Below, one piece after another: positions 59,260 to 61,697 of a stretch of 64,000 nt of DNA (position 1 is the first letter of the stretch; each line of letters starts with the position of its first letter). Source of the stretch: Candidatus Krumholzibacteriota bacterium (lineage in GTDB: Bacteria > Krumholzibacteriota > Krumholzibacteriia > JAJRXK01); the NCBI GenBank assembly GCA_963727455.1, contig CAVSGG010000004.1:1-64000 (forward strand), written 5' to 3'. Below the pieces are notes generated by a model that was given only the letters and a program-made list of their open reading frames with translations, ran no database searches and was not told the DNA's origin. Both the position numbers and the translations under genes were made by a program.

Positions 59260-59368
59260 TTCACGAGGGCGAGGCGCAAGCCCCGTGCCGCTTTCCCTGG
59301 GGCGGGCTCAGCCTTGGTATGGTACTTTCTTGGCAGAAACACGCTCCTCCTCGAAAGGTCGTGCTCGC

Positions 59369-60085
59369 ATGCGTTTGTGCGTCTTGGCTGACATCCATGG
59401 CAATCTCGCCGCCCTCAAAACCGTACTCCAGGACGCGGCAACGCGCGAGGTGGACGGATACGCCTGTCTGGGCGACGTCGTGGGTTACGGCCCCCATCCC
59501 GGGGAATGCCTCGAGTTGCTGCGCGGGCTGGACTGCCGGATCCTGCAGGGGAACCACGAAGCGGCCCTTTTGAACGAGCCTACCGCGGGGCGCTTCAACG
59601 AGTTCGCCCGACTCGCCATCGAGTACAGCCGCGGCGCGATCAGCCCCGAGCAGCTCGAATTTCTCAAGACCCTGGAACCCACGATGGTCATCGGGGAGGA
59701 GATTCAGCTCTCTCACGGCTCCCCCGAGGATCGCGACGAATATCTCATTTTCCTTCCGCAGATCGAGGGGATGCTGAGCCATGCCCGCTACTGGCTGACC
59801 TTTTGCGGCCACTCCCATCTGCAGTTCGTCCACGATGGGAACCGCTTGATGGCTGGTCCCAGGGAGGGCGTTCCCTTGGAGTACGAGCGGCGCTATCTCA
59901 TCAACCCCGGCAGCGTGGGTCAACCCCGCGACCGCGACAATCGCAGCGCGTATTGCGTGGTGGATACCGCGGAAGCTCGCCTCGACCAGATCCGCTTGGA
60001 GTACGATATCGAAGAGACGGTCGCCGCCTATCAAGAGGCGGGTCTCCCGGAATATTCGTGGCAGAGATTGCGAGACGGCCGCTAG
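59369..60085 (+). CDS. Metallophosphoesterase (calcineurin-like)
   Basis: DIHGN, GDVVGYG, GNHE, HGSP, GHSH, INPGSVGQPRD. Confidence 0.93.
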   Translation: MRLCVLADIHGNLAALKTVLQDAATREVDGYACLGDVVGYGPHPGECLELLRGLDCRILQGNHEAALLNEPTAGRFNEFARLAIEYSRGAISPEQLEFLKTLEPTMVIGEEIQLSHGSPEDRDEYLIFLPQIEGMLSHARYWLTFCGHSHLQFVHDGNRLMAGPREGVPLEYERRYLINPGSVGQPRDRDNRSAYCVVDTAEARLDQIRLEYDIEETVAAYQEAGLPEYSWQRLRDGR

Positions 60086-60119
60086 CTGCGGTCCGGTGCG
60101 AAGGCACGAACACGACAGT

Positions 60120-60407
60120 GGGAGAAAGAAGAAGGGGGCCCGAGGGCCCCCTTCTTGCTCGATCACCGTTCGGCTAACCACGTTCTCCGTTTTCCGGTAA
60201 TCCAGTGATCCTGGCGGTAGGCTGCCCTCAGCCTCTGCTCTTCGTTCAAGCCACGGGGTCACCGGCGAACCGGTATCCTACGGGCAATTGCCCAGAGACC
60301 GTGGTGAAGGACAACGCAATCCGGGTGCCCCACGCCCCCCGATCCGCACCGTCCGACCAATCGACAGCAGGAACAAGAAACTTGCCCATGCTACCGCCCA
60401 GGATCAT
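60120..60407 (-). ncRNA. Unassigned structured non-coding RNA (~290 nt; ~200 nt closed core plus 3' hairpins)
   Basis: 15-bp closing helix (60391-60406 with 60206-60220), at least five internal helices including a UUCG loop and minus-strand-only G-U pairs, an upstream promoter and a downstream terminator. Confidence 0.65.
60129..60156. terminator. Intrinsic terminator, probably bidirectional
   Basis: AAGAAGGGGGCC-CGAG-GGCCCCCTTCTT; the longer pyrimidine tail (UUCUUCUUUCU) is on the minus strand. Confidence 0.8.
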
Positions 60408-60412
60408 GCCCA

Positions 60413-60441
60413 TGTATACTTTACTGGCAAGTGGGGTGCAA
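60413..60441 (-). promoter_or_regulatory. Sigma70-type promoter of the candidate ncRNA
   Basis: TTGCAC (60441-60436)-17 nt-TATACA (60418-60413); the predicted start near 60407 coincides with the 5' end of the closing helix. Confidence 0.6.
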
Positions 60442-60560
60442 GTATCTTTTCGGGTATTACACCAAGTGGTAAAGTGCCGCTGGGTGAGAGATCATAGTCT
60501 GATTCTGGACCGTGTGAACGCGCGCCTTGCTTTCCCTCTGCTTGACCGAGGATCGCCTTC

Positions 60561-61697
60561 ATGCCCGCCAACCCCTTTCGCTTCGGAAGCCCCATCGATC
60601 AGGCCCTGCTCGTGGACCGCGAGGCCGAACGCGAGAAGATCCTAGCTATCCTGCTCGAGGCCCGCAATCTGGCCCTGGTTGCCCCGCGGGGCATCGGGAA
60701 GAGTAGTCTCTTGGCCGCGGTGGCACGGGACGGAGCGCAGCGCCAGATGAATACGGCCTACGTGGACCTGCTGCCCGCTTTGAATCCGCGGCGTTTCGCC
60801 GAACTCTACGCCTCGGCCCTCACCCTGAGCCCCTCCCGCACCATGCAGGACACGCAGGAGGCGCTGCGTCGCTTGATTCCCAACTTCTCGCCGCGGGTCA
60901 CCCTCAGCGGCGAGGGCCGCCCCGCCCTCCAGCTGGATCTATGGGACCGCGAACGGGACATCCAGGCCCTGATGGATCGGATTTTCGAGGTTCCGGCGGA
61001 GATGCAGAAGAGGAGCGGGCACCCTCTCAGCATCATCTTCGACGATTTCGAGGACCTCATCGCAGTGGCGGAGCCCGGGTTGCTGCGGGAGTTGGCGACG
61101 GCCGCCCGCAAGCAAATTCACGTGAGCTATGTCTTCGTACTGCGCAAGGACTCCACCATCCAACGTCTCTTCGAGGAGCCGCACAGCCCCTTCTATCGCC
61201 TGGCGGAGTCCATGCGGCTAGAGCCGGTGCCCAAGAACCTCATGGTGGAAGGGCTCGAACAGTTGTTCGTGGAATGCGGGGTGAGTATCGAGCCCGTGCT
61301 GCTGCACGAACTGCTGCGCCTGGCCGATACCATCCCTCACTACGTACAGATGCTGGCACACTCTCTCTTCGAGCAGTCCCGGGAGGACGGCACGGCCACG
61401 GCCAACCACCTCAAGGCTGCGCTCTCCCATGTGCTGGAAGGGCAGGCCTACGCCTTCAAATTCCAATGGGATCAACTCTCTGCCCATCAGAAGACCCTGG
61501 CGCTGGCGATCGCCCAGGGCTTCACCGAAAAGCTGCACTCTCAGAGAATGGTGGTACGATTGGGGCTGGGCTCACCCAGCACCGTGGCGAAGAACCTCCG
61601 CGTGTTGTCCGAGCGTGAAATCCTCAATCGCGACGGTGCGGACATTCGTTTCGTCGATCCCTTCTTCGGTCTGTGGTTGCAGCGCCGCATGAGCTGA
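60561..61697 (+). CDS. AAA-type P-loop ATPase with C-terminal winged helix (archaeal-ATPase-like family)
   Basis: NPFRFG, VDRE, APRGIGKSS Walker A, IIFDDFED Walker B, SPFY, PHYVQ, DPFFGLWL. Confidence 0.85.
   Translation: MPANPFRFGSPIDQALLVDREAEREKILAILLEARNLALVAPRGIGKSSLLAAVARDGAQRQMNTAYVDLLPALNPRRFAELYASALTLSPSRTMQDTQEALRRLIPNFSPRVTLSGEGRPALQLDLWDRERDIQALMDRIFEVPAEMQKRSGHPLSIIFDDFEDLIAVAEPGLLRELATAARKQIHVSYVFVLRKDSTIQRLFEEPHSPFYRLAESMRLEPVPKNLMVEGLEQLFVECGVSIEPVLLHELLRLADTIPHYVQMLAHSLFEQSREDGTATANHLKAALSHVLEGQAYAFKFQWDQLSAHQKTLALAIAQGFTEKLHSQRMVVRLGLGSPSTVAKNLRVLSEREILNRDGADIRFVDPFFGLWLQRRMS

Follow-up and report, generated by a model that had tools for sequence, protein, structure and literature searches.

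Here we describe RNA-1, a putative minus-strand transcription unit of about 285 bases that runs from promoter to terminator at positions 60407-60120 of a 64,000-nucleotide stretch of DNA (the window: positions 1 to 64,000 of contig CAVSGG010000004.1, assembly GCA_963727455.1) from a Candidatus Krumholzibacteriota bacterium, whose genome is called G000 below. Structure prediction, comparative analysis, covariance-model searches and public RNA libraries together make it highly probable that RNA-1 is a real and new non-coding RNA (ncRNA), without match to any catalogued family and confined, as far as searched, to a single family of the Krumholzibacteriota (f1). Our best reading, to which we assign a probability of about one half, is that RNA-1 is a family-specific regulatory RNA that pairs with a second RNA, RNA-2, as its sponge or antisense partner. 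A preliminary description, made from the sequence alone, had seen a free-standing multibranched RNA at this place and had named a novel ncRNA class or a very divergent 6S RNA as its possible identity. The former is borne out by the lack of any Rfam match, the single copy per genome, the covariation and the presence in RNA libraries reported below; the latter has to be given up, as G000 has a canonical 6S RNA at another locus and RNA-1 has a branched fold.

Structure, conservation and presence in RNA libraries

The fold of RNA-1 is supported by both its predicted stability and its pattern of change among homologues. The minimum free energy (MFE) of a 291-nt stretch is -140.5 kcal/mol, as against -119.5 +/- 5.5 kcal/mol for 200 dinucleotide shuffles (z = -3.84), none of which was as good. 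RNAalifold, given nine sequences, predicts 45 pairs, 14 of them changed on both sides. When the MFE structure of G000 is projected on the nine-sequence alignment, 80.1% of the cells of its 103 pairs in 13 helices are paired, compared with 38.5-48.2% in a control in which the 3' partners were slid by 1-3 columns, and two-sided changes affect 25 of the 103 projected pairs compared with 9-17 in the slid versions, a comparison that is somewhat flattered by the derivation of the projected structure from one aligned row (G000). The covariation score of the projected structure was reached by none of 500 shuffles, and the sense strand folds better than the antisense strand in all ten family members. 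The helices, junction and hairpins listed in the preliminary description were all recovered where it had placed them, and the covariation that it had proposed as a check is present as two-sided changes within these helices. Its view of a multibranched molecule, unlike the rod of 6S RNA, is likewise upheld by the MFE folds of ten homologues and by the covarying helices.

Individual helices differ in how far they hold (Table 1). The closing helix P1 is 86% paired and has four compensatory pairs, including AU to GC and CG to UA exchanges, and P2 shows GC to AU and CG to GC two-sided changes at three pairs. The long arm P3 (helix 6) comprises 18 pairs, with 91.4% of cells paired and five pairs changed on both sides, and is capped by an apical module, GGGGGGCGUGGGGCACC (60340-60324), that is invariant or nearly so across the family and whose core, GCGUGGGGCAC, is identical in 12 of 12 homologues. 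The interior from the long arm to the 3' strand of P1 varies between genera. Helices 7-9 of the central junction have 83% (CCACGG), 91% (the UGGGC hairpin) and 79% of cells paired; the junction carries the hairpins UGGGC/GCCCG and GGAUACCGG-UUCG-CCGGUGACC, and is replaced or rearranged in genera g3 and g4. Conservation of the short helices CUGCU/AGCAG (71% paired) and AGGCUG/CAGCCU (68%), and of the outer 3' hairpin (64%), is largely limited to the genus. The loop of the 3' hairpin, ACGUGGUUAGCC, is invariant in all ten family genomes. Inspection by eye for internal pseudoknot partners of the two invariant loops found none that is conserved across genera.

Table 1. Features of the RNA-1 region and of the RNA-2 locus (window coordinates unless a contig or locus is named)
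Feature	Coordinates	Strand	Remarks
RNA-1 promoter	60413-60441	minus	-35 TTGCAC 60441-60436; 17-nt spacer; -10 TATACA 60418-60413
RNA-1 core	60206-60407	minus	about 202 nt; multibranched interior inside closing helix P1
P1 closing helix	60406-60393 with 60218-60206	minus	formed by 10/10 family members
P2 hairpin	60371-60387	minus	GGGCAAG-UUU-CUUGUUC; larger hairpins instead in other genera
P3 long arm	60354-60334 with 60328-60309	minus	contains G-U pairs
Central junction	60245-60308	minus	UUCA/UGAA and CCACGG/CCGUGG (60304-60299 with 60256-60251)
Short helices in RNA-1 core		minus	CUGCU/AGCAG and AGGCUG/CAGCCU
3' hairpin	60158-60205	minus	stem 60205-60195 with 60168-60158; loop ACGUGGUUAGCC (60183-60172)
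Intrinsic terminator	60120-60156	minus	12-bp G+C-rich stem AAGAAGGGGGCC/GGCCCCCUUCUU (60156-60129); UCGG loop; U-rich tail
RNA-2 hairpin	G000:C7:120697-120776	minus	about 75 nt plus terminator; locus L055:1528-1606, terminator to about L055:1482
Inverted repeat	60457-60473		TTTACC-N4-GGTGTAA; operator-like by appearance; between RNA-1 -35 box and ATPase gene
AAA+ ATPase gene	60561-61697	plus	378 amino acids; Pfam nSTAND1/ATPase_2; C-terminal winged helix; Orc1/Cdc6-like fold
Metallophosphoesterase gene	59285-60085	plus	convergent with RNA-1

RNA-1 is bounded by a predicted sigma-70-type promoter and a predicted strong intrinsic terminator, both at the places given in the preliminary description and both preserved in the homologues. 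A simple consensus scan lists neither of them, the last base of the -10 hexamer being A instead of T and the U-tail of the terminator falling under the cut-off, so that both calls rest on conservation: the block GTAAAGTAT (60424-60416, promoter spacer and -10 region) is conserved together with ACTTGCA in 12 of 12 homologues, and a stem-loop followed by a U-run stands at the terminator position in every homologue, with stem sequences that differ. Besides conservation, the terminator is supported by cmscan matches to the terminator ends of other small RNA models. Sigma-70-type promoters are also present upstream of tRNA genes in G000. A second sigma-70-like site (TTCACA-16-TATGAT, 10 of 12 positions matching; 60491-60518, minus strand) lies about 80 nt upstream of RNA-1, where the intergenic region is poorly conserved; the RNA contigs do not extend to it.

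RNA-1 is present as an abundant RNA. Parts of the window occur in 24 public sequencing runs, four of which are recorded as RNA; we examined a DNA run along with three metatranscriptomes, each of the latter from a different study, the libraries coming from wetland and sediment. Contigs from the RNA libraries lie only within 60209-60392, that is, inside the RNA-1 core: one spans 60240-60392 and is identical to the window, another spans 60229-60348 at a depth of 82 and is accompanied by one at 60209-60258, and a further contig, from a relative with six differences, spans 60213-60382. The flanking genes have no RNA contigs save for one 35-base partial match (X12, 59898-59932, three mismatches), which is unlike the window on both its sides and has a counterpart of the same kind in the DNA run; the latter covers all 30 bins. 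Coverage from 60407 to about 60120 had been proposed as a check; it was seen for 60209-60392, within the core, and the lack of RNA contigs at 60208-60120 and on the flanks does not prove absence. In one RNA contig (X17, depth 13), adapter letters directly adjoin 60209, which is two to three bases away from where P1 ends and weakly hints at a defined RNA end or a processing site.

An open reading frame (ORF) of 55 codons does run through RNA-1 (60413/60407-60246), as had been noted, and its conservation at the protein level is not seen. From the shared ATG, genomes G001 and G004 lose the frame after about 15 and 10 residues, respectively, with DNA that is 84-93% identical; the longest ORF of G002 is in a different frame, and no peptide is common to the other genera and the G000 ORF. 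Because the frame breaks among genomes of the genus that share 84-96% identity in their DNA, RNA-1 is non-coding, and a small-protein gene was rejected, neither frame nor peptide being conserved among the homologues.

Searches against known RNA families returned nothing that would account for RNA-1. The whole window had no match to Rfam 15 in cmscan at gathering thresholds, and neither did seven homologous loci from other genera at gathering; a permissive scan (E <= 10) of 59950-60650 gave terminator-type noise and a sub-threshold JUMPstart match only, with RF00013 absent. No confident Rfam match therefore speaks against the novelty of the element. The JUMPstart/ops-like match falls on GGCGGUAGCAUG (60398-60387, in the 5' strand of P1) and scores 17.6 bits against a cut-off of 35; as this segment is unconserved outside genus g1, the match is probably due to chance. 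The universal RNAs are found elsewhere in G000: a canonical 6S RNA at C5:583654-583833 (60.2 bits; RF00013 cut-off 46.4), the signal recognition particle (SRP) RNA at C5:156930-157028 (78.4 bits) and transfer-messenger RNA (tmRNA) at C18:13942-14297 (ARAGORN). The search for RNase P RNA (RF00010) was negative in G000, an assembly that is 88.9% complete, most likely owing to an assembly gap; each of 20 relatives, among them the nine other family members with RNA-1, has it at another locus. RNA-1 is thus none of these universal RNAs, which agrees with the preliminary description, in which signatures of SRP RNA, RNase P RNA and tmRNA had not been seen.

Several more specific identities were rejected on these grounds. 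A divergent 6S RNA is contradicted by the canonical copy, the missing RF00013 match and a branched fold without central bubble, and a reduced RNase P RNA by the normal one that relatives have elsewhere and by the lack of similarity to the model at the locus. A Y RNA was discarded because the TROVE/Ro60 gene (PF05731) is absent from all ten family genomes in a search that was positive in control genomes; ARAGORN finds no tRNA-like module at the RNA-1 locus. A mobile element, such as a miniature inverted-repeat transposable element (MITE), does not fit a single-copy sequence without plasmid or phage match. Nor does a riboswitch or other cis leader fit a transcript that ends in a terminator and is followed by a convergent gene as the next real one; with the metallophosphoesterase gene beyond the terminator, a riboswitch role is unlikely, as had been supposed.

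RNA-1 homologues occur in all ten genomes of family f1. BLAST detects RNA-1 in the four other genomes of the genus (4/4) at 84-96% identity and in G005 at 70%; the copies in G007, G008 and G009 were located through collinear short matches, and that in G006, whose long-arm tip is slightly different, lies upstream of the orthologue of the neighbouring ATPase gene described below. Among 151 genomes searched with a covariance model of the 5' half, the ten family genomes score 84-108.5 bits and those of other families at best 25.9 bits. The best non-cognate match, 31 bits with an E-value of 3.3e-4 for one genome, is a second locus in G005 (C1:854872-854973) and may represent noise or else a degenerate paralogue. 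An exact copy of the 16-mer from the invariant tip is present in 11 of 208 species genomes of the phylum, nine of them family members; in the two f2 genomes it lies in coding-like sequence that lacks the second motif, and these hits were dismissed as chance. RNA-1 is single-copy, with one full-length match in G000 and one strong covariance-model match per family genome, and BLAST against plasmid and phage collections gave zero matches; the many dispersed copies by which a MITE would be recognised are not there. A metagenome scan anchored on the ATPase protein yielded eight loci, six of which include the upstream region; RNA-1 is present in all six, which add one new lineage (L115 = L117) and one variant (L114).

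Complementarity between the loops of RNA-1 and RNA-2

The 17-mer AACGUGGUUAGCCGAAC of the RNA-1 3' hairpin (60184-60168) recurs once in G000, on contig C7, and its second site lies at the orthologous place in every family genome. This second site is the apical loop of RNA-2, a small hairpin RNA that is 84-100% identical across the family; in all ten genomes an M16-type peptidase gene runs convergently to it. BLAST finds RNA-2 in 10 of 208 phylum genomes, all within f1, and in none of the 198 others, and a covariance model finds it in 10 of 151 genomes, again all in f1. RNA-2 has no match in Rfam; a divergent SRP RNA was considered and rejected, the SRP RNA of G000 lying elsewhere. Its 13-bp closing helix includes three invariant G-U pairs that would be A-C mismatches on the other strand, and its sense fold is better than the antisense fold by 3-9 kcal/mol in all ten genomes; these two observations indicate that the transcribed strand of RNA-2 carries GUUCGGCUAACCACGUU, the complement of the RNA-1 loop. 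The RNA-2 terminator is conserved, and a -10-like hexamer, TATGCT, is suitably spaced in seven of the ten genomes (g1, G005 and G006), with other -10-like hexamers in the three g4 genomes. The RNA-2 promoter region has no palindrome like that of RNA-1 (see below).

The RNA-1 3' loop is complementary to the RNA-2 apical loop over 14-19 contiguous nucleotides in each of the ten genomes, and in G000 the 17-mer is its exact complement. In G000 the RNA-1 site is also the longest complement to the RNA-2 loop genome-wide, with 17 nt as against 13 nt for the next best. Pairing energies were obtained from a loop-restricted calculation with opening energies, used in place of whole-molecule RNAduplex, which was uninformative here because it ignores intramolecular structure and scores shuffled sequences nearly as well. 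Across the ten genomes, the predicted loop-loop hybrid has an energy of -24.6 to -31.9 kcal/mol, with predicted opening costs of 4.5-11.0 kcal/mol for RNA-1 and 0.9-5.4 kcal/mol for RNA-2, leaving a predicted net energy of -15.4 to -18.8 kcal/mol. On the basis of this conserved complementarity, a functional loop-to-loop pairing between RNA-1 and RNA-2 appears to us about an even call.

G000 has no third exact copy of the 12-mer and five sites with one mismatch; one of the latter, next to a start codon, was considered as an RNA-2 target and set aside, as the 29-codon ORF concerned is probably spurious. The RNA-2 loop also shares eight bases (CGGCUAAC) with a 16S rRNA segment, CCGGCUAACUCCGUGCC, on C12 of G000 near the 530-loop region, a likeness that we judge to be coincidence.

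Neighbouring genes and the upstream palindrome

The AAA+ ATPase gene is adjacent and divergent to RNA-1 in 8 of 8 loci, in G006 and in the six metagenome loci found through the ATPase protein itself. Orthologues with 55-95% identity occur only in f1, in all ten genomes, and other Krumholzibacteriota have homologues of 21-26%. The AlphaFold model (predicted local distance difference test score, pLDDT, 78.3) ends in a helix-helix-helix-strand-strand C-terminus, and Foldseek ranks the PF01637-type archaeal ATPases 2qen and 2fna first, followed by Orc1/Cdc6 bound to origin DNA; fold and structural matches make the label of an AAA ATPase with a winged helix-turn-helix (wHTH) reasonable, so that this part of the preliminary description is sustained by Pfam, model and structural search alike. 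The protein belongs to no NCBIfam or PADLOC family and lacks a sequence match in the PDB, and the Atlas adds only uncharacterised ATPase_2 clusters. A protein search found more than 50 clusters of the orthologue. Searched alone against Pfam, the C-terminal domain gives only LexA_DNA_bind at E = 0.094, below the cut-off of that model.

It had been asked whether homologues stay beside the divergent ATPase or the phosphoesterase. The ATPase is there at all homologous loci; the metallophosphoesterase is not always, since it adjoins RNA-1 only within the genus, is farther away in G008 and G009, and elsewhere is farther or was not found in the locus.

Between the -35 box of RNA-1 and the ATPase gene lies an inverted repeat with the family consensus TT[T/C]ACC-N4-GGTGAA, centred about 58 bp upstream of the proposed RNA-1 start. 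Of the 12 homologous intergenic regions that were aligned, 11-12 show it recognisably, G006 most weakly, and it looks like an operator or activator site. A search for a corresponding regulon in G000 gave 12 loose matches, none at a comparable promoter.

Mechanism, rival explanations and significance

We propose that a sigma-70-type promoter would start RNA-1 at the base of its closing helix. The palindrome just upstream of the -35 box makes this promoter look regulated, and the adjacent Orc1/Cdc6-like winged-helix ATPase would be the obvious candidate regulator. With its 15-bp closing helix, the core (about 200 nt) would form the stable body of the molecule, and the invariant tip GGGGGGCGUGGGGCACC would, to judge by its invariance, most likely be a docking site for a protein or another macromolecule. 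The 3' hairpin loop ACGUGGUUAGCC could kiss the apical loop of RNA-2 in an interaction that might extend to a duplex of 14-19 bp, through which one RNA would titrate or destabilise the other in the manner of a sponge or antisense RNA. Any particular direction of control between the two falls well short of an even chance. A speculative and rather improbable extension of this proposal joins RNA-1, RNA-2 and the ATPase in a single dedicated circuit, specific to the lineage and of an undescribed kind, in which the ATPase would gate RNA-1 transcription through the palindrome, the 3' trailer would capture RNA-2 by a kissing loop, and the core would serve as a protein-docking particle, an aptamer or a self-processing domain.

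A number of observations weigh against the proposed mechanism and its pairing step. The RNA contigs do not tell which strand was transcribed or where the molecule truly begins and ends. They stop at 60209-60240, short of the 3' hairpin and terminator (60208-60120), so that possibly only the core is stable and the pairing loop sits on a trailer of short lifetime. Both loops being invariant, the RNA-1/RNA-2 duplex shows no compensatory change, and its edges differ in wobble-compatible ways only. In a single genome, the lone shared 17-mer has a BLAST E-value of 0.285, so the argument rests on conservation at both loci. RNA-2 is invariant well past the paired stretch, from which it follows that something else also constrains it, and the metagenomic RNA-1 of L114 has a C to A change inside the loop (GAAGUGGUUAGCC). 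As RNA-1, RNA-2 and the ATPase orthologue share one clade, their co-occurrence amounts to one evolutionary event, and regional synteny is conserved in general, which weakens the link between RNA-1 and the ATPase. Hfq was not found in G000 (88.9% complete), which is neutral for long antisense pairing.

Alternatively, RNA-1 could be a protein-binding scaffold or decoy, comparable to 6S, Y RNA, CsrB or Ms1, that acts through GGGGGGCGUGGGGCACC and for which the complementarity to RNA-2 is secondary or irrelevant. We hold this possible, on the unlikely side: the tip is invariant amid helices that covary, the core with its paired ends is the sole part seen in RNA-library contigs (at depths of up to 82), and a family-specific ATPase/winged-helix gene is always adjacent. 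However, GGA motifs are neither enriched nor placed in loops, TROVE/Ro60 is found in 0 of 10 family genomes, and an invariant 3' loop that is complementary to an invariant RNA-2 loop in 10 of 10 genomes would be left unexplained. A scaffold role is compatible with pairing as a second function. A further possibility is that the shared 17-mer is a signal at the level of DNA, either a protein site at two loci or the relic of an inverted duplication. Both sites are identical as double-stranded DNA whatever their orientation, and intermolecular covariation is absent with both sites invariant. Yet at both loci the motif lies in the loop of a conserved RNA hairpin that is covariation-supported or strand-defined, downstream of the transcription start and outside promoter DNA; no third copy exists in the genome, and a neutral relic would not stay identical while neighbouring proteins drop to 50-57% identity. 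We consider this quite improbable.

A small chance attaches to RNA-1 as a self-processing, catalytic or orphan ligand-sensing RNA whose core cuts off or controls the 3' trailer with the pairing loop. Such a role would suit the complex conserved junction architecture with its invariant unpaired nucleotides, and the RNA contigs that end near the base of P1, one with adapter directly at 60209. It is at odds with the lack of any ribozyme or riboswitch model match and of an internal terminator or expression platform between core and loop; contig ends are not molecule ends, and the interior junction is poorly conserved between genera, which would be unusual for a catalytic core or an aptamer. A cis element (leader or antisense of the ATPase or phosphoesterase gene), a small-protein gene in the 55-codon ORF or a mobile repeat of the MITE kind is very improbable. 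The ORF exists, and RNA-1 and the ATPase gene have an intergenic control region in common at every locus, but the ORF frame is broken within the genus, RNA-1 does not overlap the ATPase gene, and the downstream gene is convergent, beyond the terminator, and in other genera farther away or not found in the locus; one copy per genome without plasmid or phage matches does not describe a mobile repeat. That RNA-1 is a second 6S RNA, or a very divergent one, and binds RNA polymerase holoenzyme is hardly credible: a core of about 200 nt, a predicted promoter of its own, paired ends and abundance in RNA libraries would all fit, but the canonical 6S RNA lies elsewhere at 60.2 bits, RF00013 has no match in the region even at E <= 10, and the covariation-supported fold is multibranched and has no central bubble.

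As a free-standing bacterial riboregulator RNA-1 is of a familiar type; it represents a new RNA family, with an unusual two-RNA layout. Like 6S RNA it has a core of about 200 nt, its own predicted promoter and paired 5' and 3' ends, and it assembles from metatranscriptomes; it differs in being branched, not a rod with a central bubble, and in its extra 3' hairpin complementary to another small RNA. Antisense and sponge pairs that meet through loops include plasmid copy-control kissing pairs and chromosomal decoys derived from spacers or 3' ends; spacer-derived sponges are known in enterobacteria, and if only the RNA-1 core is stable, a 3' trailer with the pairing loop would be reminiscent of them. 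RNA-1 and RNA-2 resemble such pairs in being separately encoded, with perfect complements in hairpin loops and low predicted opening costs. In contrast to such pairs, both RNAs have unlinked chromosomal genes, are inherited vertically and are almost invariant at the contact, RNA-1 is large and multidomain, and no Hfq was detected in G000. Y RNA and YrlA, which associate with Ro60 (Rsr), share with RNA-1 a long end-to-end closing stem, a branched top and suspected protein binding, but the family lacks TROVE/Ro60, and RNA-1 has neither a tRNA-like module nor an Rfam match. RNA-1 is akin to the large structured orphan ncRNAs of bacteria, such as raiA, OLE, ROOL and GOLLD, in its complex conserved fold, apparently independent transcription and orphan status; it differs in having no match to them in Rfam 15, in a far narrower range of one family, and in having an RNA partner that can be proposed.

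RNA-1 and RNA-2 are an unusually clear-cut case: one RNA is large and covariation-supported, the other small and near-invariant, and their loops are exact complements in every family genome. Should the pairing not be real, RNA-1 would nonetheless give the databases a solid new family of structured ncRNA. If it is true, it would constitute a natural, Hfq-independent-looking RNA-RNA module that can be tested with synthetic transcripts and needs no culture, in a phylum that to our knowledge has no cultured representative. The invariant tip, and the palindrome beside the ATPase gene, provide handles on a partner protein and on a regulator. A full-text search for ncRNA or small RNA in Krumholzibacteriota gave no relevant paper, judged by title and abstract, which would make RNA-1 and RNA-2 the first candidate riboregulators of this phylum.

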